Origin: an uncultured Myxococcales bacterium | Lineage (GTDB): Bacteria; Myxococcota_A; UBA9042; CAIXZC01 | Direction of reading: 5' to 3' | Assembly (NCBI GenBank): GCA_964593355.1 | Contig: CAZQHM010000002.1 | Coordinates: 99,747 to 163,746, forward strand | DNA length: 64,000 nt | In this document: positions 7,190-49,773 of the stretch, in pieces | How positions within the stretch are numbered: position 1 is the first letter of the stretch | Layout of the letters: each line of letters opens with the position of its first letter | Made by a program: the position numbers and the translations under genes | Notes under the pieces: generated by a model | Told to the model about the DNA's origin: nothing | The model's input: the letters and a program-made list of their open reading frames with translations, nothing else | Database searches by the model: none

Positions 7190-10100
7190 TTAGCCCCCGC
7201 AAGTTACCTTTATAGTATAGCTGCCTTCTTCGCCATTATAGCCGTCAATTACTATGAAGTAGGTGTTGCCTGCAACAGCATCGATGGTGATGTCGTTCAA
7301 GCCCCAGTCCATGCACTCCGAGGCCAGGCACGATCCGTCAGAGGCTTCGCTCAACACCATAATGTCGAGATCGGCACTCTCGTCGCTGAGCGTGAAAGTC
7401 ACTGGGCCCGTGGCTTCGGCCTGGAAGATATAGGTGTACTCGGCGCCGGGGTAGTCGAAGAAGTTGCACCCATAGTTGTCCAGAAGATCCGTTGCGCCAG
7501 GATTCAAGGTCGACCAGGAGTCAGATGAATCACAGTAGAGGGTCCAGTCCGGCACGCACTGGTCAAAGGGACACGCCTCGCTGCCTGGCAGGCAGTCCTC
7601 GCTGTCTTCGCAGTCTACAAGCCCGTCCTGGTCATCGTCGATGCCGTCGGAGCAGTTCTGTTCGGTCAGTGGCACGCAGCCCACGGTGATGGTGAAGAGG
7701 CCGGTTCCCGGCAAGGCGCCACCCTCGAAGCCGTCGACCACGAAGAAGTAGGTCTTGCCCGCCTCAGCCTGGAACGATGCCGTCGAATAGTCAAAGGCTA
7801 TGCAGGCTGTGGGCTGGCAACCGGTTCCCGAAGACTCAAGGATCATGACGTCGGTGTCGGCTTCTTCCTCGGAGAGGGTCACAGTTACCGTGGCGTCGTA
7901 TTCTGCTGTAAAGCTGTATGTGTATTCAGGAGCAGAATAAGTAAATATAGAGCAGGGATAGCTTTCTATGACATCAGTGCTGCCTGTCCAGGAGTTGTCC
8001 CATCGGTCGGTTCCACCACATACCAGTGTCCAGTCGGGTTGGCACACGCCGCAAAGCTGCGTTCCGCCGGGCTGGCATACACCTTCCAGGCAGAAGTCTC
8101 CTTCGGTGCACGGGTCGTTGTCATCGCAGGCGCCGTCGAAGTTGGCGGCTATGCAGCCCACCACGGGGTCGCATGAATCGGTGGTGCACTGGTTGCCGTC
8201 GTTGCAATCGGGTGCGCCGGTGCCGGTGCAGAGGCCCTGCTGGCAGAGGTCCGTGAGCGTGCAGGCGTTGGAGTCGTCACACAGTCGGTCATCGGGGGCA
8301 TTGATCTTCTCGCACAGCCCCGTGGCCGGAACGCACTCGGTGCGCTGGCACTGGGTATCGGAGGAGGTGTCGCAGGTGACGATAGAGTCGGGATCGATGA
8401 GGCACTTGTAGCCAATGCAGCGGTAGACACCATTGCAGAGGTCTTCGTCGTCACGCTCGGCACAGTCGGCATCAACGGTGCATGTGCACTCTGGGTTGGG
8501 CTGGCCCTTGCATACGCCTTGAACGCAGATGTCGTCCAGCGTGCAGTAGTCGTTATCGTTGCAGGAGTTGTTGTTGTAGGTGTAGACGCAGCCTATTGCG
8601 CTGCTGCAGCCGTCCGACGTGCAGATGTTGCCGTCGTCGCAGACGATGTTCTGGCCCTTGCACAGGCCCCCTACGCAGGTGTCGTTCTTGGTGCAAGCGT
8701 TGGCATCATCGCAGGTGGTAGCATCGGCAGCGGCCTTGACTTCGCAGGCCCCAGTCTCGGGGATGCAGGCCACGGTCTGGCATGAGGTGGTGGGGACGTC
8801 GGCGCAATCCACGACCGAACCCTCTTTCACCACGCAGCGCTTGTTGATGCAACTCATGACTCCGTTGCACAGATCACCGTCGTCAACGCAATCCTCGTCG
8901 GTGTTGCAGTTACAGGTGGGATCGGGGTCGCCCACGCAGGCGCCGTTGACGCACTTATCGTTGATGGTGCAGGGGTCGCCATCGCCGCAATTCCCCTCTT
9001 TGGGTGCATTCACGCATCCCGTTGCAGGATCACAAGAGTCCTGGGTGCAGGCGTTGTTGTCGTTGCAGGCCACTGGCAGACCAACGCAAGCGCCCGCAGA
9101 GCAGTAGTCGTCTTTGGTGCAGGCGTTGGCGTCGTTGCAGGCCGTGCCGTTGAGTGCAAGCTTGTTCTCGCACTCGCCGGTGGAAGGATTGCATGCGTTG
9201 GTCTTGCAAGGATTGTCCGTGCCAGGGCACATGACAATAGAGGTAGGATCGTTCTTGCACTGCCCTGAGATGCACTTCACAAGACCGTTGCAGAGATTGC
9301 CGTCTTCGAACTGCTGGCACTCAACGTCGCTGGTGCAGCCGCTGCAGTCGGGCAAGGGTTCGCCTGTGCAGACGCCCTGCTTGCAGCCGTCGTCCTTCGT
9401 ACAGAGGTCGCCGTCGTTGCAGGAGGTTCCGTCGGGGGCCGAGGTCTTGGTGCAGCCGGTCGCCGGGTCGCAACTGTCCGTGGTGCACGGGTTGCCGTCG
9501 TTGCAGTTCACCGTAGTGCCCAGGCACGTCCCGGCCGTACACGTCTCATCCTTGGTGCAGGCGTTTCCATCGCTGCACGGCTTGCCGTTCTCCAAGTTCT
9601 TGTACTTGCACTGGCCGTCCTGAGGATCGCAAGAGACGCTCTTACAGGCCACCTCGGGCATGTTGCTGCAGTCGACCGCACTCGTAGGATCGGCCACGCA
9701 CTCCTGGTTGATGCACTTCACAAGACCGTTGCAGAGATTGCCGTCGTCGTACTTCACGCAGTCGGCGTCCCCCGTGCATGGATCGCATATGGTCTCGCCG
9801 CCAACACAGGCCCCATCCTTGCAGGCGTCGTCCTTGGTGCACTTGTTGCCGTCGTCGCAAGGCTGGGTGTTGTTGACGAACTGGCATTCGCCAGTTTCGG
9901 GGTTGCACTGGTCGTCAGTGCAGATACTACCGTCCGAGCATGCTTTGGGCTGCCCCTTGCACTGCCCTTGCAGGCACTGGTCGTTGTCCGTGCACTTGTC
10001 ACCATCATCACAAATCTTCCCGTTGGTCGAATCGATGACCTGACATACCTTGTCTACACAGGCAATCTCCTGACACGGACCGGGAAGCCCCTTGCCCGTG

Positions 10101-10291
10101 CAGTCGGCAGCGGTGTTGCAGCCCTCAGGGGTGGTGTCGGGCTGGGCCGTATCCTCCTGCCCCAGGTCAAAAAGAATGGCATCTGTGCCCGCATCTTTCT
10201 GATCTTCCTCCATTACAACGGTACCCCCACCGCCGCAGCCAGCGGCCAGCGCTAGTGCTAGAATGAAACTCAAAATGCTCGTAATCTTCAT
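7190..10291 (-). CDS. Giant secreted lipoprotein with about 20 Myxococcus-type cysteine-rich repeats (C-x-D-G/D-N-x-C-T-x-D-x-C) and two C-terminal pre-peptidase C-terminal (PPC)-like beta-sandwich domains
   Basis: Lipoprotein signal MKITSILSFILALALAAGCGGGG. Repeats such as CNDGNPCTTDSCDPATGC, CSDGNACTKDETC and CDDGNKCTKDDAC recur through the protein. Two repeats of YTYSFTAEYDATVTVTLS.../YTYIFQAEATGPVTFTLSD... at the C-terminus. GGAGGA RBS. Confidence 0.75.
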   Translation of the reverse strand: MKITSILSFILALALAAGCGGGGTVVMEEDQKDAGTDAILFDLGQEDTAQPDTTPEGCNTAADCTGKGLPGPCQEIACVDKVCQVIDSTNGKICDDGDKCTDNDQCLQGQCKGQPKACSDGSICTDDQCNPETGECQFVNNTQPCDDGNKCTKDDACKDGACVGGETICDPCTGDADCVKYDDGNLCNGLVKCINQECVADPTSAVDCSNMPEVACKSVSCDPQDGQCKYKNLENGKPCSDGNACTKDETCTAGTCLGTTVNCNDGNPCTTDSCDPATGCTKTSAPDGTSCNDGDLCTKDDGCKQGVCTGEPLPDCSGCTSDVECQQFEDGNLCNGLVKCISGQCKNDPTSIVMCPGTDNPCKTNACNPSTGECENKLALNGTACNDANACTKDDYCSAGACVGLPVACNDNNACTQDSCDPATGCVNAPKEGNCGDGDPCTINDKCVNGACVGDPDPTCNCNTDEDCVDDGDLCNGVMSCINKRCVVKEGSVVDCADVPTTSCQTVACIPETGACEVKAAADATTCDDANACTKNDTCVGGLCKGQNIVCDDGNICTSDGCSSAIGCVYTYNNNSCNDNDYCTLDDICVQGVCKGQPNPECTCTVDADCAERDDEDLCNGVYRCIGYKCLIDPDSIVTCDTSSDTQCQRTECVPATGLCEKINAPDDRLCDDSNACTLTDLCQQGLCTGTGAPDCNDGNQCTTDSCDPVVGCIAANFDGACDDNDPCTEGDFCLEGVCQPGGTQLCGVCQPDWTLVCGGTDRWDNSWTGSTDVIESYPCSIFTYSAPEYTYSFTAEYDATVTVTLSEEEADTDVMILESSGTGCQPTACIAFDYSTASFQAEAGKTYFFVVDGFEGGALPGTGLFTITVGCVPLTEQNCSDGIDDDQDGLVDCEDSEDCLPGSEACPFDQCVPDWTLYCDSSDSWSTLNPGATDLLDNYGCNFFDYPGAEYTYIFQAEATGPVTFTLSDESADLDIMVLSEASDGSCLASECMDWGLNDITIDAVAGNTYFIVIDGYNGEEGSYTIKVTCGG

Positions 10292-14801: not shown

Positions 14802-15041
14802 CTATTTCTCTGCCATCTTCCTGGCGCGTGAACGCAGAGCCTTTCTACGACGCCTCTCGGCCTCGCGATGCTTGCGCTTGATCTGCTCGCTGGGCTTCAA
14901 GAAGAACTTCCTCTTCTTGAGCTCTTTGTAGACTCCCTCGTTAGCCATCTTGCGCTTGAGGGCTCTAAGAGCGCGATCAACGTTTTCGTTCTCGACCTGG
15001 ACTTCTACCGGTCGATGCTCAACAACTTCTTTTGTCCTCAT
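14802..15041 (-). CDS. rpsU: 30S ribosomal protein S21
   Basis: VEVQVENENVDRALRALKRKMANEGVYKELKKRKFFLKPSEQIKRK and a basic C-terminal tail. Start at MRTKEVV with upstream AGGA. Confidence 0.8.
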   Translation of the reverse strand: MRTKEVVEHRPVEVQVENENVDRALRALKRKMANEGVYKELKKRKFFLKPSEQIKRKHREAERRRRKALRSRARKMAEK

Positions 15042-15218
15042 TCCTGTACACCATCCCTTCAAAGACAGTGGGCGGATTATGGGTAGGAGAGGGGTCGTTG
15101 TCAAGGATTTTCCTTACCGTTGCGCCCTCACGACCCCGAAGGACCCAACAGTCGCCCATTCGCTACCTTCCAACGGGCCATAACCGGCCCTATGGCCCAA
15201 TTTCCGCCTTTTACCCCG

Positions 15219-15288: not shown

Positions 15289-15660
15289 ATGCCAGGATTC
15301 GACGGAACAGGACCCAGGGGCCAAGGACCCATGACCGGCGGTGGACGTGGTCGCTGCAGACCAGCCACTACGGCAGATGACAACGAGAGAAGCTCTGTTG
15401 CCAGCCAACCTCAGGCAGGACCGGCCGTAAACGGCGATGCAGCGCCAGGCAACCCAGCTCCGGCACAAGATGAGCTGTGGGGCGTTGGTCGCGGCGGAAG
15501 ACCTAGAGGCGGCGGCAACGGGCGCTGCTTTGGCGGTGGACGCGGGAACGGCAGAGGTCGAGGAGGCCGAGGAGGCGGCCAGGGACCAGGCGGTGGTGGT
15601 GGTGGTGGTGGCGGTGGTGGTGGTGGTGGCAGAGGTGGTAACGGATGGGGCGGGCGCTAG
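15289..15660 (+). CDS. Small Gly/Arg-rich protein with DUF5320-like N-terminus (MPGFDGTGPRGQGPMTGGGRGRC) and a poly-Gly C-terminal tract
   Basis: GGAGGA RBS. The N-terminal motif resembles the conserved DUF5320 start MPGxDGTGPxGxGPMTGRGxGxC. A (GGT)n microsatellite encodes G13. Confidence 0.55.
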   Translation: MPGFDGTGPRGQGPMTGGGRGRCRPATTADDNERSSVASQPQAGPAVNGDAAPGNPAPAQDELWGVGRGGRPRGGGNGRCFGGGRGNGRGRGGRGGGQGPGGGGGGGGGGGGGGRGGNGWGGR

Positions 15661-15663
15661 CGG

Positions 15664-16266
15664 CTACTCGTTAGGCTTCCAGATCTTCCAGACGTTGCCG
15701 GCGAGATCGGGCGAAACCTTCAACGTGGGTTGGCCCGGCTCCCAGCCCGCAGGACAAACCTCGGCGCCCTTGGTAGCACGAACGTGCTGATAGGCCTTGA
15801 GCTGACGGATGGACTCGGAAACCTTGCGTCCCACCGGCGGCGTCAGCATCTCGATGGCCTGAATGATCCCGTCGGAGTCGATGATGAACCGGCCGCGCAT
15901 GTCCACGCCCGCTGCCACATCGTACACGCCATAAACAGAACCTATCTGACCACCGGCGTCAGAGAGCATGGGGAACGGCACACCGCCATCCACCATCTTG
16001 CTGAGCTCTTGCTCCTGCCAGATCTTGTGGACGAATCGGCTGTCCGTGCTGCATGACAGCACCTGAACTCCCAGCTTCTCGAACTCATCGGCCTTGGCTG
16101 CGACCGCAGCCAGCTCGGTGGGTCAGACAAATGTGAAATCACCGGGGTAGAAGCAGAGAAAGACCCACTTCCCCCTGAACTCTGAGAGCCTGACGTTCTT
16201 GAATCCGCCCTGATAATAGGCAGAGGCTTCGAAATCCGGAGCTTCCTGTCCAACCATAACGCCCAT
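15664..16266 (-). CDS. 2-Cys peroxiredoxin (AhpC/Tsa family) with selenocysteine at the peroxidatic position; in-frame TGA at 16123-16125
   Basis: Two ORF-track pieces (16123..16452 and 15664..16062) are in the same frame. Read-through gives FYPGDFTFV-U-PTELAAVAAKADEFEKLGVQVLSCSTD, the canonical FTFVCPTE motif. The resolving Cys lies in EVCPAGW. AGGAG RBS before MGVMVGQEAPDF. Confidence 0.75.
16093..16113 (-). promoter_or_regulatory. Bacterial SECIS hairpin (mRNA GGCUGCG-GU-CGCAGCC) beginning 11 nt 3' of the UGA
   Basis: Perfect 7-bp stem with a G/U-containing apical loop. Near-identical in architecture to the E. coli fdhF SECIS apex GGUUGCAGGUCUGCACC. Canonical 11-nt spacing from UGA. Confidence 0.65.
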
Positions 16267-16513
16267 GTTCTTCTTCTCCTCGGTTTTGGGTTCGTTCTCT
16301 CGGCCCGCCGCCAACATCGGCTTCTTCACGGGCCCTCCTGCCTTAGAAACACATCCTGTCTTGGGTTCTTCAGCCAATTCTCCCTCCATGGTTAGTTGGT
16401 CTACGAAACAACACCGTTGCCCGTCAATCAGCTGCCATCTGCCAATGGCCAATACAGAAGGCTCTTACCCCCTGATCGGCCCTGAACTCTGACTGGATTC
16501 GATGGGCACCGGA

Positions 16514-17788
16514 TCAATGATCACATACATTGCTGCCAGTAACAAGAATTCCGTCCATGAACTCCTGCAAAATCGTTGCAGGGGGCGCCACGGGTGCCCC
16601 AACAACCACCTCGATGCTGTTCTGGTTGAAGAGGCTCTGGGCCCTGGAGCCCATCCCGCCGGCAATAATCAGGTTTGCTCCCTGCTCGTGAAGCCACTTG
16701 GGGTAGGTCCCAGGCTCGTGCGGAGGCGGAGTCAGCTGCGACTCGTTCAGAATCGTCTTCGCAGCCATGTCCACCTTGTAAAGATAGAACTTCTCGCAGT
16801 GCCCGAAATGGGACGAAAGCTGACCGCCCGTTACCGGTATGGCTACCATCATGATCTCTCCCTCCTTGCTTACTACGCTCTCTGCGCTGGGATTCTCCTG
16901 GCTCAGCTCCTTCTCAAGCAGCTTCCGGACAATCCTTCCAAAGGCCATGGCCGTCTGTGAGTGGGGATGCGAATGAACTATCGGATCGCCCGATTCCCCC
17001 GACCCCACCACGTCCGCCTCGATAGGAATTGCACTCAAGAATGGAACCCCCATCTCCTCTGCCATGGCCTCCCCTCCACCCGAACCAAAGATATGCACAA
17101 CCTCACCACACTTCGGACAGGCAAATCCGCTCATATTCTCTACTACACCCAAAACAGGCAGCTTCAGATGCTCGCAGAATACGACGCAACGTCGAACATC
17201 CTGCACTGCTACACCCTGGGGCGTGGTGACAACCACAGCCCCGTCGGCATCCTCGATGAGCTGCGCCACCGCTAACGGCTCGTCGCCTGTGCCGGGAGGT
17301 GAGTCGATTACCAGGTAGTCCAGATCTCCCCACGCAACATCCTTAAGAAACTGCTTGATAACCGAGTACTTCCTGGGGCCACGCCAGATCACCGCCTCGT
17401 CACGACCACGCAGCAGAAAGCCGATGGACATGACGCTGATGCTGCCAGGACCATATTCCAGCTCCACGGGGAAGAGCCCCCCCTCGAAACCCTCTACAGG
17501 CGCCCCCTCGAGGTCCAACATCTTGGGCACACTGGGCCCGTGAATATCCACATCCAACAACCCCACCTTCTTGCCAGCCAGCGCCAACGCCGCAGCAAGA
17601 TTCACCGCTACCGTGCTCTTGCCAACGCCTCCCTTGCCGGAAAGCACCAGGACCTTGTGCTTGATATGGCACATGCGGGCCTGCAACTCCTGCCGCTCCT
17701 GAAAGGCCTGTTCGTCCTCACCCGATCTCCGAGAGTGAGCTGAACAGGAAGAATCGTTACATGTTCCACACTGTTTCTCTTCAGACAT
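16514..17788 (-). CDS. Mrp/ApbC/NBP35 family Fe-S cluster carrier ATPase fused to a C-terminal NifX/NafY-like (dinitrogenase FeMo-cofactor family, PF02579-like) domain
   Basis: Cys-rich N-terminus CGTCNDSSCSAH. Deviant Walker A VLSGKGGVGKST. Mrp signature CPKCG. C-terminal MMVAIPVTGGQLSSHFGHCEKFYLY...IIAGGMGSRAQ. Confidence 0.8.
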   Translation of the reverse strand: MSEEKQCGTCNDSSCSAHSRRSGEDEQAFQERQELQARMCHIKHKVLVLSGKGGVGKSTVAVNLAAALALAGKKVGLLDVDIHGPSVPKMLDLEGAPVEGFEGGLFPVELEYGPGSISVMSIGFLLRGRDEAVIWRGPRKYSVIKQFLKDVAWGDLDYLVIDSPPGTGDEPLAVAQLIEDADGAVVVTTPQGVAVQDVRRCVVFCEHLKLPVLGVVENMSGFACPKCGEVVHIFGSGGGEAMAEEMGVPFLSAIPIEADVVGSGESGDPIVHSHPHSQTAMAFGRIVRKLLEKELSQENPSAESVVSKEGEIMMVAIPVTGGQLSSHFGHCEKFYLYKVDMAAKTILNESQLTPPPHEPGTYPKWLHEQGANLIIAGGMGSRAQSLFNQNSIEVVVGAPVAPPATILQEFMDGILVTGSNVCDH

Positions 17789-17820
17789 GTCTTTTTCCTT
17801 TATGCATCATAAACTTAAAA

Positions 17821-19701
17821 CTAATGCAAGCCTAGTTCTTCGCTGACTTTTTGCCATAAAGCCACGATGTCCTTGGCAGCACCCTCCTCGCTGAACTCCA
17901 CTATAGAAACCCCGGCAACCTGGGCCGCCGTAACCTCCTTGTCATAACGAATCTTCCCCAATACCGCCAGACCCAACTCGTTTGCCTCACGCTCTATGCG
18001 CTGGGCGAGCTCCGGATTAATGTCCGCCTTGTTGATAGCAACCCCCGTCCGGATCTTGAATTGAGCGGCCAACTCCGCCACCCGCCGCAGGTCATGAAGA
18101 CCCGACAGCGTTGGCTCGGTCACAACCAGAATCATGTCGGCACCAGTGATCGAGGCAATGACGGGACAGCCGATTCCCGGCGATCCGTCGCACAGCAGTA
18201 ACCCTGAGCCGTTTAGCTGGGCCACTGCCTTGCCCTCACGGCGTACCAGCGAGACCAGCTTCCCGCTGTTCTCTTGAGCTATGCCCAGCTTGGCATGAAC
18301 CATGGGCCCGTGCCGCGCCACGGACTGGAACCACGACCCGCTGTTCACCGGCTCCGCTGATATGGCCCGCTCCGGGCAATGGTCGACACAGACCCCGCAC
18401 CCCTCGCAGGCAATGCTGTCCACCTGGTAAGCCTGGTAGCCTGCGCCGGTCATTGGCGTATCAGCCGTGGGCCTGACTATAGCGTCGTACCTGCAGAGGC
18501 TATGGCAGACCCCGCAGGATATGCACAACTCAGGGTCCACAGCAGCTATCTTGCTACCCGAAAAGGGCCACTGGTTCTTCACCTGTGGAGAGAGCACCAG
18601 GTGCAGGTCCGCCGCATCGACATCACAATCCACCGTGGTGCTGCCTGGCGCCAGCGCACTGAACGACGCACAAACACTGGTCTTTCCCGTGCCTCCCTTT
18701 CCGCTGATAATCACCAGCTCCTTGGGAGACCTCTTCTTCCCAGCTGCTCGCAACTCCGCCGATGGGAATCGCGACACCTCTCCTACCTCCAGAAGCGGAC
18801 GCTCAACCTTGCCTTCCCTACTCTTGCCAGCCGCTGCCATCTGCTTCATAGCATCGAATGTCCTGAGAAGAGACTCTCCAAGTTCGGGAAGGACGTTCAA
18901 CGCCATCTCCCCAATTGAGTAAGCCCTTGCTATCCTCATGTCGTGCGGAACCCTGAGGACCACCGGGATGCCCTCTTGACTGCAATACTCATCCACCAGA
19001 TCCGACCCAACGCCGTCTCTGTTGATGGCTACTCCGAACGGCACCCCCACAGCCCGAACCATCTCCACAGCCAATATCAGGTCGTTCAGACCAAACGGGG
19101 TCGGCTCAGTCACCAGCAAGACCGCATCGGAATTCGAAACCGTCGTGATCACCGGGCAGGATGTGCCCGGAGGCGCATCGAGAACCGCTACACAATCCGC
19201 CGGTATGGCATCAACCACAGCCCTGATTATTGGGGGCGCCATGGCCTCCCCTACCGTCAGGCGACCCTGAATGTGGGCCAACAAACCAGAAGTTCCCCTC
19301 TCCACCACACCGATGGGACGCTCTACCTCCGTTATGGCGCCAAACTTGCACGCCAGAAGACATCCGCCACACCCATGACATAGCTTGGGGAACGTCAGCA
19401 CCTGCTTAGGAAGGGAAACTATCGCAGAAAACCTACAGGCCTCACCGCAAGCCCCACAATGGGTGCATCGCTCCGCATCAACCTGCGGCACCGGAATCGA
19501 GACATCCCTGCTACTCAATCCCGATGGCTTCAAGAAGATGTGCCCGTTGGGCTCCTCTACATCACAATCCACGTAGGCAGTACAACCCCCACTATTGGCC
19601 GACACACGCCTCGACAGCGCCAACGCCAGATTGGTCGCTATGGTCGTCTTGCCCGTGCCACCCTTGCCGCTGGCTACAGCAAGCCTGAACTCTCTACCCA
19701 T
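17821..19701 (-). CDS. Tandem fusion of two MinD/CooC-type P-loop ATPases, each with an inserted 2x[4Fe-4S] ferredoxin domain (COG1149-like)
   Basis: Two deviant Walker A motifs (ASGKGGTGKTT and ISGKGGTGKTS). Each is followed by a CDV(E/D) segment and two CxxCxxCxxxC ferredoxin motifs: CTHCGACGEAC and CHGCGGCLLAC in the first half, CISCGVCHSLC and CEGCGVCVDHC in the second. Confidence 0.8.
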   Translation of the reverse strand: MGREFRLAVASGKGGTGKTTIATNLALALSRRVSANSGGCTAYVDCDVEEPNGHIFLKPSGLSSRDVSIPVPQVDAERCTHCGACGEACRFSAIVSLPKQVLTFPKLCHGCGGCLLACKFGAITEVERPIGVVERGTSGLLAHIQGRLTVGEAMAPPIIRAVVDAIPADCVAVLDAPPGTSCPVITTVSNSDAVLLVTEPTPFGLNDLILAVEMVRAVGVPFGVAINRDGVGSDLVDEYCSQEGIPVVLRVPHDMRIARAYSIGEMALNVLPELGESLLRTFDAMKQMAAAGKSREGKVERPLLEVGEVSRFPSAELRAAGKKRSPKELVIISGKGGTGKTSVCASFSALAPGSTTVDCDVDAADLHLVLSPQVKNQWPFSGSKIAAVDPELCISCGVCHSLCRYDAIVRPTADTPMTGAGYQAYQVDSIACEGCGVCVDHCPERAISAEPVNSGSWFQSVARHGPMVHAKLGIAQENSGKLVSLVRREGKAVAQLNGSGLLLCDGSPGIGCPVIASITGADMILVVTEPTLSGLHDLRRVAELAAQFKIRTGVAINKADINPELAQRIEREANELGLAVLGKIRYDKEVTAAQVAGVSIVEFSEEGAAKDIVALWQKVSEELGLH

Positions 19702-19724
19702 ATCCGCCTCGCTTGAGTTGTTCG

Positions 19725-20603
19725 CTACTTCTTCATGCCCGAGTGGCTCTCTACATTGGGCCCCGATGCTGCCTTCAGTCCGCCGCCCTTAAACACCGAT
19801 ACCGCCTCCTCAACACTGCCCGACATTCCGATGTGAACCGCTATCCCAGCAGCACTCAAGGTCTGGTGCGCGTTGGGCCCGCAGTTGCCGGTCAACACAG
19901 CGGAAACACCCTTGTGGGCCAACATCTGCGCTGTCTGAATGCCCGCACCACCACCCAACGAACCGGCATCGTTCTCCAAAGACTCGAATTCCATACTATC
20001 GGGATCAATAATAATGAACCACGAGCACCGACCGAATCTTGAGTCCATGGCTGACGTCAGCTCTGGACCCGTAGATGTAACTGCAATTTTTCCCATTTTT
20101 TTATCTCCTTTGGATATTTCTAACCTATTATCATCTCCCAGTAATATACTACTTCGCTGCTGACCGCGGCGCCCTCCTCTTCCTGCACCGCCCCCACCTG
20201 ACTCACCCCTTCCACCGCCGCCACATCCACGAGTTCCACCACTCCCTCGTCGACCATGCCCGCGGCAGCACCCGGGCATCGCAAACGCTTCCGCTGAGAG
20301 ACTCCCCGCGAGAAGAGCTTCGATCACATCATCCTGAGTGCCCGAGACAAAAGAGAGCAACTCTATGCCCGCATCTACCAACTCGCCATGAAGCGATCTT
20401 GAGACCGCCCCACACACCAGCTGCTGTACGCCAAGGTTCCTCAGCACAACTACTCGCTCCGACAAACCCACACTTCCCAATGCCTCAGTGCGGCGTGATA
20501 CGATCGCCCCTCCGTCGACATCGAGCACCACAACCTCCCTGCTCACGTCGAACACCGGCGACACCCGCCCCTGCCATACCGCTATTGCTACTCTTCGTGA
20601 CAT
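19725..20603 (-). CDS. Protein with two NifX/NafY/NifB-C-like domains (PF02579-like) joined by a Gly/Arg/Cys-rich linker
   Basis: First domain: RVAIAVWQGRVSPVFDVSREVVVLDVDGG. Second domain: KIAVTSTGPELTSAMDSRFGRCSWFIIID...VLTGNCGPNAHQTLSAAGIAV. Linker: MPGCCRGHGRRGSGGTRGCGGGG. ATG at 20601-20603 with a GAAAGGA RBS; the ORF-track start at 20621 is a TTG. Confidence 0.7.
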   Translation of the reverse strand: MSRRVAIAVWQGRVSPVFDVSREVVVLDVDGGAIVSRRTEALGSVGLSERVVVLRNLGVQQLVCGAVSRSLHGELVDAGIELLSFVSGTQDDVIEALLAGSLSAEAFAMPGCCRGHGRRGSGGTRGCGGGGRGESGGGGAGRGGRRGQQRSSILLGDDNRLEISKGDKKMGKIAVTSTGPELTSAMDSRFGRCSWFIIIDPDSMEFESLENDAGSLGGGAGIQTAQMLAHKGVSAVLTGNCGPNAHQTLSAAGIAVHIGMSGSVEEAVSVFKGGGLKAASGPNVESHSGMKK

Positions 20604-20653
20604 GGTCCTTTCTTCCGCCAATCAAACAGGGCCCCGTGCCCCCGCTGGCTCTA

Positions 20654-20670
20654 TGCATATCTTGGACCAT
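20654..20670 (-). promoter_or_regulatory. Candidate sigma-54 promoter aTGGtCCaagatATGCAt
   Basis: GG-N10-GC spacing is correct. It lies about 50 nt upstream of the tandem NifX-like gene start. It is weaker than the element at 15219. Confidence 0.35.
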
Positions 20671-20921
20671 AAGAAATGCCCCCGTCGGCAATGCCGGGCC
20701 CTCCAGGAGATGCGTCATCGCTTTCGCCCCCAACGAGGCTACTGCCTTCCGACTTCAAGCCCCAATGCCCAGGGAATCGGGCGGACCTCGCTGAACTGAG
20801 CCCCGTCGCCTCTCCGGCCACGGCACTCTCGCCCAGTCCACTGGTCACGGAAATCATAAGGTAGCGCTTATGCGACTCTTTGCGGAAAAACGGTGGCGTT
20901 CATGCGACTCTAGAGCGCCCG

Positions 20922-22304
20922 TCAGAACCTTCCCCCCCGACCATCCCTTCTGGGCAATTGCAGACCAAGAGCCTTAACCTTCCGGAAGAACGTGCTCTTG
21001 TGCATGCCCAACTCTCTGGCAGCTTCTAACCTGTTGCCTCCGCAACGCTCCAGTGCCGCCAGAATCGCCTCTGTCTCGGTCTGGTGAATGGACTCTGCCA
21101 GCGAATGGGAGGATGCCTGCCTCTTGCCAAGAGGAACAAGAACCTCCGGCAAGTGGCTGACTTCTATTTGACCTTTATGAACAAGCACAAAGCTGTGCTC
21201 GATAATATTCTGCAATTCCCTTACATTGCCAGGGAAATGGTGTGCCATCAGCAATCCCAGCACATCAGGACTCACACCGGTTATGTCTTTGTTTTGTAAT
21301 GAATTATAGAGCGAAATGAAGTGTTGCACCAGTAATGGTATATCATCTTTTCTGTCACGCAACGGTGGCAGATGCAGCATCATTACATTGATTCTGTAAT
21401 ACAAATCATGACGAAATTTGCCTTCGGCTACCATCGTTTCAAGATTTCTATTGGTCGCTACCACTATTCTAACGTCCGCCTTTTCTGTCTTTGTAGAACC
21501 AAGAGGCTCGAAGAGCCGCTCCTGAATCACCCGAAGCAGACGAACCTGCATGGCTTGCGATATCTCCCCAATTTCGTCCAGAAAGAGGGTACCGCCCCTC
21601 GCCAGAGAAAACCTGCCTGGCTTGTCTTTGGTCGCTCCCGTGAAGGCTCCCGACTTGTACCCGAAGAGCTCCGACTCAAGGAGAGTGTCCGGAAGAGCCC
21701 CGCAGTTCACAGCAACGAAGGGACCGTTCTTACGTGCCGAAAGACTATGAATCGCCCTCGCTGCCAGTTCCTTTCCAGTGCCAGTCTCTCCAGTAAGCAG
21801 CACGGTGCTCTCACTCTCTGCAATGAGCGGAATCATCTGCAGAATGTGCCTCATCGAAGGACTTCGGCTTACGATGTCTCCCACCTGGTGACGACCGAGT
21901 ATCTCCTTTCTGAGCTCCTCAATAATCGTCAGATCTCTGAAGGTCTCGGCCCCGCCAACAGTAGCCCCGCTCGCATCCTTCAGCAGCGCCGTCGATACCG
22001 ACACGGGTATCCTGTTGCCCTCGGCGTTGACAATGAATGCGGCCCTGTTGACCACAGGCACCCCCTCATCGAGCGTCCTCCGCAGAGCGCAGTCCGTCTC
22101 ACACATGCTGGCCCTGAAGACATCAGAGCAGCGGCGGCCCATAGCCTCTTCCCTGCCTATACCGGTGATACGCTCCGCTGCCCTATTAAACGAGGTTACC
22201 CGCCACTGGTCATCCACAGTGAAGACCCCGTCAGAGATGCTTTCAAGAATCGCATCAGTAGGTATTGGTGGCGCCGCTTCTGGTTTTCCGTTTCGTCGAC
22301 TCAT
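20922..22304 (-). CDS. Sigma-54-dependent transcriptional activator (NtrC family) with an N-terminal Cys-containing PAS sensor and a C-terminal Fis-type HTH
   Basis: AAA+ sigma54-interaction motifs TGETGTGKELAARAIH, GAFTGA and RELQN. PAS segment contains CSDVFRASMCETDCAL. HTH segment is HKSTFFRKVKALG. Confidence 0.85.
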   Translation of the reverse strand: MSRRNGKPEAAPPIPTDAILESISDGVFTVDDQWRVTSFNRAAERITGIGREEAMGRRCSDVFRASMCETDCALRRTLDEGVPVVNRAAFIVNAEGNRIPVSVSTALLKDASGATVGGAETFRDLTIIEELRKEILGRHQVGDIVSRSPSMRHILQMIPLIAESESTVLLTGETGTGKELAARAIHSLSARKNGPFVAVNCGALPDTLLESELFGYKSGAFTGATKDKPGRFSLARGGTLFLDEIGEISQAMQVRLLRVIQERLFEPLGSTKTEKADVRIVVATNRNLETMVAEGKFRHDLYYRINVMMLHLPPLRDRKDDIPLLVQHFISLYNSLQNKDITGVSPDVLGLLMAHHFPGNVRELQNIIEHSFVLVHKGQIEVSHLPEVLVPLGKRQASSHSLAESIHQTETEAILAALERCGGNRLEAARELGMHKSTFFRKVKALGLQLPRRDGRGGRF

Positions 22305-45794: not shown

Positions 45795-48700
45795 TTAGTC
45801 GCAGCGGATGCTTCTTAGAATAGTGACCGTGGAGGAACCGGCGTTGAGCACCGCCAGATCGGGACAACCGTCGTTGTCCATGTCGGAAACTTCAAGATCG
45901 ATGGGGCTGGACCCAGCTGGCAGGTAGTGCGGGCCAAGGAACTCCCTGCCACCGGCGCCAACATAGATAGCCAGCTGATTCTGCTTCTTGCTCGAGACTA
46001 TGACATCGTTGATGCCGTCGTCGTTGACGTCGGCCACAGCAACCGCACTGGGTTGCAACTCATCGGTGCCCGCCTGCACCAGAAACTTGGGGGGATCAAA
46101 AGTAATACCGCCATCACGTCCGTACATAATAGAAATATTCTCGCCAAGTGCTGCAACAACATCAACAATGCCATCTTTATCGATATCTGAGGCTCCAAGA
46201 TCCTGAGGATTCATTCCAATAGCGTAAAGGTTAGGATTCAATCCAGTGCTGTGGAACTTGTAGGCGTTAGGCCCGCAGACCCCCTTGAGGTAACTCATGG
46301 AGCCGTTGGTCCAGGCTACCAGGATGTCGTTGCAATTCTCCCCGTCCGGGTAGAAGTCGCCGACAATCGCCGACACAGGCTCAATACCCACCTCCCAAGG
46401 CAGTGTCTGATCCGACGGCTTTGCCGGGCCATACCACGGTCCGCACGTACCCTCGCCGGACACCGGCACACACTTAGGCAACTCCGAACCCCCTGATGCG
46501 CCGCAGAAGGCGTCGGACATCTGCTGAATCGGCCAGTAGGGGGCGCACTCGAACCAGATCTGATCGTAACGCTGTGGACAGGTTATGAAACCGCCGATGT
46601 TCTGAAGCCAGTCGTCATCAAATCGGGTTAGATAGGTGGCCACAATGTCTGGCTGGAAGTCCTCGGGGTTCTCAACCTCGCCTACTGCCGGAGCAAATAC
46701 CACTATGTCGTCCATGGAATCGTTGTTCAGCTTTCCAAGCGCCAACCCGTTGGGGCTCTGCAACCCGAAGAAGCCACCCAAAGACCAGAAGTGACCCGGC
46801 TGAACCGAGGCCTGGGGAATGAAGTAGTCCGCATTGGCCCCAAATAGAGCCTCCTCCTCGGTGTGTGCTCCCTGAACCTTCCTGCACCCGCGCATTACCT
46901 CAATGGTCCTGGCCTCACAACCCGTAGTTCCCTTCTCATCCAGCGTTAACACAAGATCCATGCACTGGTCCGCAGTATCAAGCTTCCCCGCCGCCAACCC
47001 GGTTACCACCTCGAAATCGGGATTCAACGCAGACTTAATGGCAGGCATGGTCGGGAACCAGCCGCTGGAGAGCCAGGTCAGCACCATCTGCGCCTGAATC
47101 TCACTCTCTCCAAGAAGCTGATCCTGCTTGTCTACCACCACAACAAGATCGTCCCCCGGGAAGTTGTCGATGTTCTTCGCCAGAAACTTCAACGGCACCA
47201 CACGCCCCTTGGTCCAGTCGGCCTGCACCGGCATTGGAACCTCAAGCGGCGAAATGAAGGTCCCAGGACCCGCTGCGCCCCGGTTGTGAATCACAGCTAC
47301 CCGACCCTCTCCCACAAGGCAGGCAAGATCGTTGAAATTGTCGCCGTTGAAACGGCCAGCCACCAACGACCGTGGCTTCAAACCAGGATTCACCGAATAG
47401 TACTCACCAAAATCCCCCGCCGATCCCGGCTGATAACGGTAAATGCCGATACGGTTGGACTCCGGAACCGCCACAGCTATGTCCTTCTCGGGAAACTCAT
47501 CGAAGTTCGCCAAAGCTATCGAATCCGGATCCTCGCCGATGAACAGAAGATCTCCAAGCGGACGTATCCCACTGTTCAGCAACCCCATGGTCACCTGGTT
47601 CGTTACATGCTCCAACCCGAAGTCAACGTCCGACTGCCCCAGGTTCGGCCCCAGAGGATTGAAGTACCCCAGACCGTTGCCGCGCTCCACATACAGTGCA
47701 CCCATGGTCAGACCCGTCACCAGAACGTCGTCCAAGCCATCCTCAGTGAAGTCCCCAACCACCGCAAGCTTGGTTCCTCCACCATGAAGCACAGTGTCAT
47801 GAGCAATACCATACTTGCCGTTCTTGTCGTTGATCACAACCGACAAGGTCGGCTCTCCACCACGGCCAAGAACTATGTCTGGATAGCTATCAGAATCAAG
47901 ATAACCGAATTCAATGCTTGTTACGCCTGTAACACCTGTGAACACTGCCGGTATAGTATAATAATCCTGTATAATGTTGTTTTCTTCGCTTTTTCTGGTG
48001 TGAATGAAAATTGCTACGCTGTAGTAATCGCTTGGTCCACCAAGAACTATATCCGGAAATCCATCCACGTTCATGTCTCGAATTTTCAATATCGTAGCCT
48101 GCCCTGCCAGATCTGCCGAATATATAGGCTCATCTGGAAAACTCCACGTGGGCTGCCCTTCATCATTTACTCTCTGTGCGTATACATTAAGGTAGTCTAT
48201 TTCACCATCTGTGCTCAAAACCACCAAATCATCAAAACCATCGCCAGTGACATCGGTGAGCTGGGCGTCCTTAAGCCCTTCTGCCTCGAACAGCGGCTTT
48301 ATTGGCTGAACAACTCCATCCAATCCATTTCTGATAAGACCCACTCTTGTTGGAGTCACCGCCAGCAAGTCATCAATGCCATCCTCTTTATCGTAGTCGG
48401 CAAGATTAAGCTTAATGGCCCCAGCAAAGTTGTCATCTATCTGGGGATGGGCAGCTGATTCGTATTTTGGAGAAGCAATAATCTGGACAGGTATCTCAAC
48501 TTCAGTGATATTATCAACACAGTCGCTTGCCACGATCTTGAAAACATCGTTCTTCGTCGGGAAATCCGAGATATCAAGGCTGCGCGCAAAAGGCGTGCTG
48601 GACGTTGTTCCGTTCATTCCCGTTACCGATGGTTCCAACTCGGTGCTGCCCAGATAGAAATGCAGCTCCTTCAATCCCGACAGCGTGTCCCCAGCAACCA

Positions 48701-49385
48701 TGGTCGTCTCGAGGGTCTCGATGAACCTCAGAGTCTTACCATCCTCAACCTTAGGTTTCACCAACTGAATCTTTGGACCCGTAGTGTCCACAGCAATGGC
48801 CAACGTGGCCGACTTCTCCAACGGATCTCCTAACTCATCCTTGTTCTTCGAAAGAGCCAGAATCTTGAAGGGATAGACGCCATCCTTAACCACGCCCTCT
48901 TCGTCCTGCGCAAAGATCGTGTTAACCTCCAACCAGAATACCCCTGTCTCGTCGGGTAACTTGGCTTCGGTCACCAACACCCCCTCAGGCTTCTCCGGGT
49001 TCCCCATGAACAATAACCGAACTCGATAGATGCCCGCCGCCCCCTCAAACTTCCCCGCTGTGTGCTCTGCCCTCACCTTTATGCGAGTGCCATCCTTCAC
49101 ATGCCAGCCACAATCCTTGGGCGGAATAACCTTGGGATCACATCCACACAACGAAGGAGGATAGTATTGCAGAACCATGGGCAGATCCTTGGGCTCCTCA
49201 ACCTCATCGGCCAAATCCGGCTTCAATTCCGGCTCTACTGCCGTGTCGGGAGCGCTCTCATCCTGCACCACCTGGTCCTCCGGAGGCTGTGTCGTGTCCT
49301 CCTGTGAAGAGCCGCCACCGCTGCTGCATCCAGCGGCCATCAGTAAAAACATTAAACCTGCCACGCACGCGCTAATCCGGATCAT
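45795..49385 (-). CDS. Very large secreted lipoprotein with multiple FG-GAP/VCBS (integrin-alpha-like) repeats
   Basis: MIRISACVAGLMFLLMAAGCSSGG lipobox with a GGAGGAG RBS. Recurrent DGFDDLVV, NVDGFPDIVLG, DSYPDIVLG, NDDGINDVIVS and MDNDGCPDLAVL Ca-binding FG-GAP motifs. Confidence 0.7.
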   Translation of the reverse strand: MIRISACVAGLMFLLMAAGCSSGGGSSQEDTTQPPEDQVVQDESAPDTAVEPELKPDLADEVEEPKDLPMVLQYYPPSLCGCDPKVIPPKDCGWHVKDGTRIKVRAEHTAGKFEGAAGIYRVRLLFMGNPEKPEGVLVTEAKLPDETGVFWLEVNTIFAQDEEGVVKDGVYPFKILALSKNKDELGDPLEKSATLAIAVDTTGPKIQLVKPKVEDGKTLRFIETLETTMVAGDTLSGLKELHFYLGSTELEPSVTGMNGTTSSTPFARSLDISDFPTKNDVFKIVASDCVDNITEVEIPVQIIASPKYESAAHPQIDDNFAGAIKLNLADYDKEDGIDDLLAVTPTRVGLIRNGLDGVVQPIKPLFEAEGLKDAQLTDVTGDGFDDLVVLSTDGEIDYLNVYAQRVNDEGQPTWSFPDEPIYSADLAGQATILKIRDMNVDGFPDIVLGGPSDYYSVAIFIHTRKSEENNIIQDYYTIPAVFTGVTGVTSIEFGYLDSDSYPDIVLGRGGEPTLSVVINDKNGKYGIAHDTVLHGGGTKLAVVGDFTEDGLDDVLVTGLTMGALYVERGNGLGYFNPLGPNLGQSDVDFGLEHVTNQVTMGLLNSGIRPLGDLLFIGEDPDSIALANFDEFPEKDIAVAVPESNRIGIYRYQPGSAGDFGEYYSVNPGLKPRSLVAGRFNGDNFNDLACLVGEGRVAVIHNRGAAGPGTFISPLEVPMPVQADWTKGRVVPLKFLAKNIDNFPGDDLVVVVDKQDQLLGESEIQAQMVLTWLSSGWFPTMPAIKSALNPDFEVVTGLAAGKLDTADQCMDLVLTLDEKGTTGCEARTIEVMRGCRKVQGAHTEEEALFGANADYFIPQASVQPGHFWSLGGFFGLQSPNGLALGKLNNDSMDDIVVFAPAVGEVENPEDFQPDIVATYLTRFDDDWLQNIGGFITCPQRYDQIWFECAPYWPIQQMSDAFCGASGGSELPKCVPVSGEGTCGPWYGPAKPSDQTLPWEVGIEPVSAIVGDFYPDGENCNDILVAWTNGSMSYLKGVCGPNAYKFHSTGLNPNLYAIGMNPQDLGASDIDKDGIVDVVAALGENISIMYGRDGGITFDPPKFLVQAGTDELQPSAVAVADVNDDGINDVIVSSKKQNQLAIYVGAGGREFLGPHYLPAGSSPIDLEVSDMDNDGCPDLAVLNAGSSTVTILRSIRCD

Positions 49386-49773
49386 GGTCTCCTCCGCGCA
49401 GTAGACCAAGGGACATTCTCTGGTTCCCCCCCCTGCACGTCAAGTAATCCACCTATTTCTCTTTCCAAAGGAACACCCCTCTCCCTCGGAACTGGCCCAG
49501 GGACCATGCGCCTCCAACCAAACGGAGACCCCTCAGTACAAGGCAGCTCCACTGTCACCACCAAACCGACCCACACCGATGACCACGGCCCAAGCTCCTC
49601 TGACCACACATTTTCGCATTGACCGTTTGCCAAACAGGTTCGATATGGCCGGCGAGCGCCCGTTCGGCAAGGCCGGGCGCTGGGCGGCTGCGCAGTCGTG
49701 CTTTGCACGGCGAGCACGACCGGCCAAGCCCAACGCAGCCCAGCGGGATGATCGACGGTCAGAGCGAGCCTGT

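Follow-up and report, generated by a model that had tools for sequence, protein, structure and literature searches.

A probable selenocysteine-containing peroxiredoxin gene (prxU) and its conserved downstream hairpin in an uncultured Myxococcales bacterium

Background

Does a TGA at the active site of a peroxiredoxin (Prx) gene mark a broken gene, a reassigned codon or a selenocysteine (Sec) residue? The question is raised by a locus in a 64-kb stretch of DNA from an uncultured Myxococcales bacterium (GenBank:GCA_964593355.1, contig CAZQHM010000002.1, positions 99,747 to 163,746), which is called the window throughout. Two open reading frames (ORFs) on its minus strand, 16123..16452(-) and 15664..16062(-), lie in the same frame and are separated by one TGA (16125..16123). 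Based on comparison with related loci, we regard this locus as very probably a functional prxU gene, encoding a thioredoxin-fold peroxiredoxin of the AhpC/Prx1 type with Sec as the peroxidatic residue. The evidence comes from the reading frame, from the conservation of the UGA in 80 relatives, and from an RNA hairpin downstream of it that resembles a Sec insertion sequence (SECIS).

Results and discussion

One peroxiredoxin gene read through a single TGA

Translation from position 16266 through the TGA gave a protein of 200 amino acids (aa) that contained the stretch ...FYPGDFTFV*PTELAAVAAKADEFEK... and, near its C-terminus, EVCPAGW. The initial annotation had taken the two ORFs as one gene split by a single in-frame TGA, and both the shared frame and the read-through coordinates agreed with it. 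It had also placed the TGA at the position of the peroxidatic Cys; this was borne out by the AhpC/Prx1-type motif PxxxTxxU formed around that codon and by the TGA present in the related loci described below (coordinates of all features are given in Table 1).

Pfam matches were obtained to AhpC-TSA (PF00578, 2.9e-37), Redoxin and 1-cysPrx_C (PF10417). The NCBIfam equivalog NF040737 (peroxi_PrxU, thioredoxin-dependent peroxiredoxin), which has a cutoff of 270 bits, was matched at 370.2 bits by this short form and at 382.8 bits by a longer form starting at an upstream ATG, the latter over profile positions 2-232 of 233, and the score for the AhpC model TIGR03137 lay under that model's own cutoff. 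The best solved structures were typical 2-Cys Prx, with E-values from 1e-43 to 6e-48 over residues 44-233 (human Prx2, 5ijt, 6e-48). The view that the locus encodes a Sec-containing peroxiredoxin of the AhpC/Prx1 type was thus upheld by the PF00578 match, the NF040737 score above cutoff, the motif and the conservation of the SECIS, and judged from its sequence the window gene is an additional member of the already known, curated PrxU family.

Members of this family carry Sec in the motif PxxxTxxU (PMC13188914). PrxU was first purified from Eubacterium acidaminophilum by Söhling et al. 2001, as that study is cited in PMC9312934 and PMC13188914, and in the passages concerned peroxiredoxin (TxxU/PxxxTxxU) is placed, with the same citation, among the experimentally verified prokaryotic selenoproteins. 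A survey of 2006 counted 12 Sec-Prx genes, mostly in anaerobes, as the fifth most frequent bacterial selenoprotein family (PMC1794560), and prxU was annotated in 2013 in Desulfotignum phosphitoxidans (PMC4046663). With this rank, and with Sec forms at every one of the 80 related loci, the earlier description of Sec-Prx as rare could not be retained.

These relatives were obtained by scanning one genome per GTDB species, which yielded 80 loci of 67-87% identity from Acidobacteriota, Myxococcota/Deltaproteobacteria, Chloroflexota, Planctomycetota, Ignavibacteria, Bacillota, Zixibacteria and others. All 80 had TGA at the homologous codon and were Sec forms. In 40 ungapped comparisons with the window, differences at codon positions 1/2/3 numbered 333/248/927 upstream of the TGA (third position, 927 of 1508) and 1154/938/3108 downstream of it (third position, 3108 of 5200). 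Purifying selection therefore acts on both halves of the gene, across the UGA.

A hairpin maintained at a fixed distance from the UGA

The initial annotation had located a hairpin exactly 11 nucleotides (nt) 3' of the UGA, and its coordinates were confirmed. The minimum free energy fold computed with ViennaRNA contained it as a stem of 6 bp closed by a GGUC tetraloop. It had been described as 7 bp closed by a GU loop of 2 nt, which is thermodynamically impermissible; among the relatives, nevertheless, the bases flanking the central GU covary like a pair, so that the description has comparative support. The proposed extension of the lower stem with a bulged A had to be dropped, as it is specific to the window, the corresponding pair (18-41) being unpaired in 66 of 77 sequences.

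For the comparison, 77 distinct segments of 54 nt were aligned without gaps (alignment A1). The spacer between the UGA and the hairpin had the same length in every one of them, and 95.2% of the cells of the 6-bp stem were paired. Double changes were found in 55 cells of the stem, as against 18.0±2.9 in shuffled alignments, and none of 500 shuffles reached 55; the covariation score was 0.320, compared with at most 0.135 when the partners were slid. Pair 24-33, which joins two synonymous third positions, was G-C in 57 sequences, A-U in 17, U-A in two and G-U in one, and was never unpaired. The loop read GGUC in 51 sequences, AGUU in 21, GGUU in four and AGUC in one, so that the central G28 and U29 were invariant (77/77), and the flanking positions 27 and 30, also synonymous sites, varied together (GC 51, AU 21, GU 4, other 1). 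Selection on RNA pairing was visible in the encoded protein as well: the amino acids specified by the two arms of the stem (codons 22-24 and 34-36) covaried as pairing dictates, S occurring with D or G, A with A, and T with V. Relative to its closest relatives (GUCGGC...GCCGAC), the window stem has undergone two compensatory double changes, in a U-A and a G-C pair. The comparison supports the downstream hairpin as an evolutionarily maintained SECIS-like element.

Since the stem lies wholly inside the coding sequence for a conserved Ala-rich helix, and three of its six pairs are almost invariant, one may ask whether conservation of the peptide L-(A/S/T)-A-V-A-x alone could have produced the hairpin, any read-through of the UGA being achieved by other means. 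This would not account for covariation at synonymous third positions, as seen at pair 24-33 and at the loop-flanking positions 27-30, nor for the choice of amino acids in step with pairing. Two true Cys forms argue in the same direction. Locus L081 (Aggregatilinea lenta), with TGC at the Sec site, has lost three of the six stem pairs, and locus L082, with TGT at that site and the similar peptide LAAVAA, keeps five of six pairs in combination with an altered loop that lacks the loop G. We consider an origin of the hairpin from peptide conservation very unlikely. Another Cys form was noticed beside a relative: an ordinary Cys-Prx (FTFVCPSE), which has no hairpin, lies about 700 nt downstream of the prxU of locus L035 (L035:3851).

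Several observations weigh against reading the window locus as a functional prxU. Taken alone, its hairpin is statistically unremarkable: for the 49-nt segment the folding energy was -18.4 kcal/mol (z = -1.29), a stability matched by 20 of 200 shuffled sequences. No SECIS family of Rfam was matched, either in the whole window at the gathering threshold or in positions 15600-16500 at E <= 10, where the sole match was a chance one to CcsR1 on the opposite strand. The bulged U17 that SelB of Escherichia coli needs is absent, the helix being a continuous one of 6 bp in the window and its relatives. Neither selA, selB, selD nor a tRNA-Sec was found in the 64-kb window by ARAGORN and by Pfam analysis of 30 large ORFs, nor was a further selenoprotein gene recognised in it. 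In addition, the upstream ATG (16389) that would start the long form has no Shine-Dalgarno (SD) sequence in the window, which makes the choice of start uncertain. As to the hairpin, the comparative evidence places it beyond chance and is decisive where the lone fold is not. As to the machinery, none of which lies in the window, we infer from the intact gene and the selected SECIS that this organism decodes Sec. Probably, then, the organism uses Sec and has a peroxide defence that depends on selenium, a trait typical of anaerobes or microaerophiles; Sec-Prx are common among anaerobes.

The unremarkable fold would also suit a pseudogene or a sequencing error, in which an ordinary Cys-Prx had acquired a nonsense mutation, or a TGC had been miscalled as TGA, and the hairpin were coincidental. 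The treatment of the locus as two fragments by a gene caller points the same way, and two relatives do look damaged: L006 (L006:2851-3603) has a second in-frame stop (FRG*WVF), and L040 (L040:2851-3603), an additional copy in the metagenome-assembled genome (MAG) that also contains L012, carries a frameshift. Each of these two may be a decaying copy or an assembly error. A miscall or a nonsense mutation is, however, difficult to reconcile with a TGA shared by 80 of 80 independent loci, or with an ENA contig in which a near-identical locus was assembled independently. Purifying selection persists downstream of the TGA, and compensatory substitutions have maintained the hairpin, two of them in the window's own lineage. 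By these sequence comparisons the explanation is effectively refuted, and we hold it to be extremely improbable.

UGA as an ordinary stop codon, and its misreading in databases

Another explanation is that UGA has been reassigned to Trp (genetic code 4) or Gly (code 25), as implied by the FTFVWPTE of many database entries. Among the 120 best database homologues (P0001-P0120), Trp occupied the Sec site in 85, Arg in one and Gly in one. In the one homologue checked (P0001), the W was a TGA in the DNA (L084:237-839), and such readings come from short contigs, on which gene callers switch codes; they are evidently a genetic-code-4 artefact. Within the window, TGA terminates 8 of the 28 Pfam-supported genes, which argues that it is not reassigned in this organism and serves as an ordinary stop elsewhere, and among the window genes no housekeeping gene was seen with an in-frame TGA where Trp or Gly is conserved. 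The phyla concerned use the standard genetic code. Moreover, catalysis would be lost with Trp in the peroxidatic position, and a reassigned codon needs no conserved hairpin at a fixed 11 nt. The chance that the codon has been reassigned can be treated as practically nil, and Sec remains the preferred reading.

The initial annotation had expected a standard pipeline to split the gene, and this has indeed happened. On the independently assembled ENA contig (L083:11412-12125; ENA ERZ27257504:k141_263100, 155 kb), which carries the same locus, prxU was called as two genes of 84 and 132 aa. The coordinates of this contig imply that it extends about 100 kb beyond the left edge of the window and ends before its right edge. 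For most database homologues, either the protein is truncated or Trp is given for the UGA, so that alignments of the family are corrupted at the catalytic position. For annotation purposes the window locus should be entered as one intact selenoprotein gene, not as two fragments or a pseudogene. No new question is opened by it, because the family, its recoding mechanism and its motif have been described since 2001 and a curated NCBI model exists. What the present analysis adds is a demonstration, by comparison of related loci, that the SECIS limits the choice of amino acids as well as variation at synonymous sites, together with two uncharacterised features of PrxU, an N-terminal Cys motif and a variable resolving Cys.

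N-terminal extension and start codon

The gene start had initially been set at 16266. This codon proved to be an internal Met, the family-wide start being the upstream ATG at 16389: the match of the short form to the PrxU profile begins only at profile position 36, and nearly all relatives encode an upstream in-frame M-x(5-10)-GCVxxAxGP(I/L/V). On this sequence evidence prxU probably starts at ATG 16389, giving a protein of 241 aa whose extension reads MEGELAEEPKTGCVSKAGGPV in the window. About 72 of 82 family loci encode the motif GCVxxAxGP(I/L/V). Its pattern of change is that of coding sequence, as indicated by its entropy at codon positions 1/2/3 (0.95/0.75/1.73) and by its Cys, which is present in 72 of 72 loci with a codon that wobbles between TGC and TGT; in alignment A2, the conservation of Cys13 was at least 90%. 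A variable linker of about 25 aa separates the motif from the Prx domain in the window and in L001-L082.

A canonical SD sequence precedes the upstream ATG in 63 of 72 relatives. In 54 of 69 loci an SD-like sequence precedes the internal Met as well, but it is part of the conserved coding sequence for 'KEE/KEV'. Because in the window ATG 16389 has no SD sequence while GAGGAG precedes ATG 16266, it is possible that both starts are used, and the internal ATG may be an alternative start.

None of the solved structures covers the extension, the matches being confined to the residues given above. In the AlphaFold2 model of a Cys-form relative (P0053), the Prx domain had pLDDT (predicted local distance difference test) values above 90, and the extension had low to moderate ones (block means 57, 61 and 49). 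No description of the GCVxxAxGP extension was found in the searchable literature.

Gene neighbourhood

The initial annotation had assigned prxU to an Fe-S/metallocluster locus, and this fits the three same-strand genes that adjoin it upstream (Table 1). A sigma-54 activator lies further upstream, the cluster and activator together spanning 16514..22304(-). The minus strand of the 124-nt gap upstream of prxU showed neither a sigma-70-like promoter nor a terminator, and prxU may be co-transcribed with the three genes.

Table 1 Coordinates of prxU, its sequence elements and the adjoining gene cluster in the window
Feature	Coordinates	Strand	Remarks
prxU gene, long form	15664..16389	(-)	241 codons including Sec89; probable start; TAG stop 15666..15664
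N-terminal extension, 41 aa	16267..16389	(-)	Motif TGCVSKAGGPV; Cys13 codon 16353..16351
Internal ATG	16264..16266	(-)	Preceded by GAGGAG; candidate alternative start
UGA (putative Sec codon)	16123..16125	(-)	Sec89 (long form) or residue 48 (short form); peroxidatic site of PGDFTFV-U-PTE
Spacer from UGA to hairpin, 11 nt	16112..16122	(-)	CCCACCGAGCU; equal length in 77/77 distinct aligned sequences
SECIS-like hairpin	16096..16111	(-)	GGCUGC (16111..16106), loop GGUC (16105..16102), GCAGCC (16101..16096)
Cys212 codon (EVCPAGW)	15754..15756	(-)	Canonical resolving-Cys position of typical 2-Cys Prx
Mrp/NUBPL-type P-loop ATPase fused to NifX-like domain	16514..17788	(-)	Pfam
Double MinD/CbiA ATPase with 4Fe-4S domains	17821..19701	(-)	Pfam
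NifX-like protein	19725..20621	(-)	Pfam

Homologues of the Mrp/NUBPL-NifX, MinD/CbiA-4Fe4S and NifX-like genes adjoin prxU in at least 12 loci (L004, L006, L021, L026, L033, L036, L059, L065, L068, L069, L076 and L077), from Acidobacteriota, Deltaproteobacteria, Dehalococcoidales and Anaerolineae. Elsewhere, recurring neighbours of prxU were Fur-family regulators, rubrerythrin/ferritin-like proteins and KatG. No single conserved operon surrounds prxU among the loci, only these recurrent themes. A role in peroxide defence fits such a setting, given the Fur-family, rubrerythrin/ferritin-like and KatG neighbours and the Mrp/MinD/NifX cluster. A further, rather doubtful possibility is that the recurrent adjacency of the Mrp/MinD-4Fe4S/NifX-like genes reflects a dedicated protection of metallocluster assembly from peroxide.

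On the other side of prxU, an ORF of 123 aa rich in Gly and Arg, 15289..15660(+), is convergent with it, with 3 nt between the two stop codons. Within this ORF, which had no Pfam match, a (GGT/GGC)n repeat encodes 14 consecutive Gly; the N-terminus of its product (DGTGPRGQGPMTGGGRGRC) is weakly similar to a DUF5320 protein that neighbours prxU in L082 (pairwise E = 0.004). The gene for ribosomal protein S21, 14802..15104(-), follows just downstream of the prxU locus. Two further large genes of the window have no obvious link with prxU, one for a repeat protein of 1033 aa with Dictyostelium-type CTDC repeats and a PPC domain, 7190..10291(-), and one for an FG-GAP repeat protein of 1204 aa, 45795..49409(-). 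The only tRNA gene detected in the window by ARAGORN was that for tRNA-Asp. A mechanical search of the window returned 144 in-frame-TGA candidates, and no convincing split gene was recognised among them in unannotated regions; an APRT gene ends at a normal TGA, for instance, and a LysE-type gene begins after one.

Resolving Cys and proposed mechanism

The resolving Cys in EVCPAGW, which the initial annotation had considered to be retained, is indeed present as Cys212. The clade of the window (L001-L028 and L040), which makes up about 30 of the 80 loci, keeps EVCPAGW. Thr, Ala, Met or Leu takes the place of this Cys in most other PrxU loci, in most database members and in both true Cys forms. 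Most PrxU are thus, judged from their sequences, formally '1-Sec' enzymes unless another Cys resolves. No description of the absence of this Cys from the majority of PrxU was found in the searchable literature.

By analogy with fdhF of E. coli, a complex of SelB, GTP and Sec-tRNASec would bind the hairpin as the UGA reaches the ribosomal A site, the loop GGUC on top of the 6-bp stem exposing its G and U for SelB. Delivery of Sec to the A site would compete with RF2. The UGA would then be read as Sec89, with translation running on to the TAG at 15664. By analogy with the cycle of typical 2-Cys Prx, the selenolate would attack the hydroperoxide and give a selenenic acid. Cys212 of the partner subunit would most likely be the residue that resolves this acid, with formation of a selenenylsulfide. 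A thioredoxin-type reductant would regenerate the enzyme, which agrees with the product name given by NCBIfam. It is conceivable, if rather doubtful, that Cys13 of the GCVxxAxGP motif is a redox partner of Sec and takes over resolution in those PrxU, the larger part of the family, whose canonical site is occupied by Thr, Ala or Met. If so, the clade of the window, with both Cys13 and Cys212, would represent an intermediate or dual-resolving form.

Comparison with known systems

The reference used for the SECIS of E. coli fdhF was a sequence that 5419 of 5426 complete E. coli genomes carry as fdhF. In fdhF the UGA is followed by 11 nt and GGUUGCA-GGUC-UGCACC, and in prxU by 11 nt and GGCUGC-GGUC-GCAGCC; the two share the 11-nt spacer, a G+C-rich stem of 6 bp and the GGUC loop with its G and U. 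The E. coli element in its minimal form is a 17-nt upper stem-loop 11 nt from the UGA. This spacing has been described for fdhF, in which the bulged U17 forms, together with G23, the contact for SelB (PMC8659212). Because prxU has no such bulge, its loop GU lies one nt nearer to the UGA than that of fdhF. A lower stem is present in fdhF, whereas no conserved lower stem was found in the prxU element. The earlier statement that the apex of the hairpin mirrors the fdhF SECIS thus stands for the spacing and the GGUC loop and fails for the bulged U17. It appears that the prxU element would work like an SECIS of the fdhF type, not being an exact structural copy of it.

With PrxU as defined by NF040737, the window protein shares a full-profile score above cutoff, Sec in PxxxTxxU, a hairpin within the ORF after the UGA, and the N-terminal extension with its Cys. 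It differs at the resolving site, which is Thr, Ala or Met in the majority of PrxU and Cys, in EVCPAGW, in the window and its clade of MAGs of the Acidobacteriota and Myxococcota type. With typical 2-Cys Prx, such as human Prx2 (5ijt) and AhpC of Amphibacillus (1we0), it has in common the fold, the active-site motif and EVCPxGW, whereas it carries Sec in place of the peroxidatic Cys and an N-terminal extension of 41 aa with an invariant Cys. No ahpF adjoins prxU in the window. The Prx-like thiol:disulfide oxidoreductases (UxxC/UxxU), the UGC-containing Prx-like proteins and Prx-SUH share with it the Pfam clan and a Sec redox motif (PMC9312934, PMC13188914). In those Prx-fold families Sec is part of UxxC, UGC or CxxU motifs, whereas the window protein has the TxxU of a genuine Prx.

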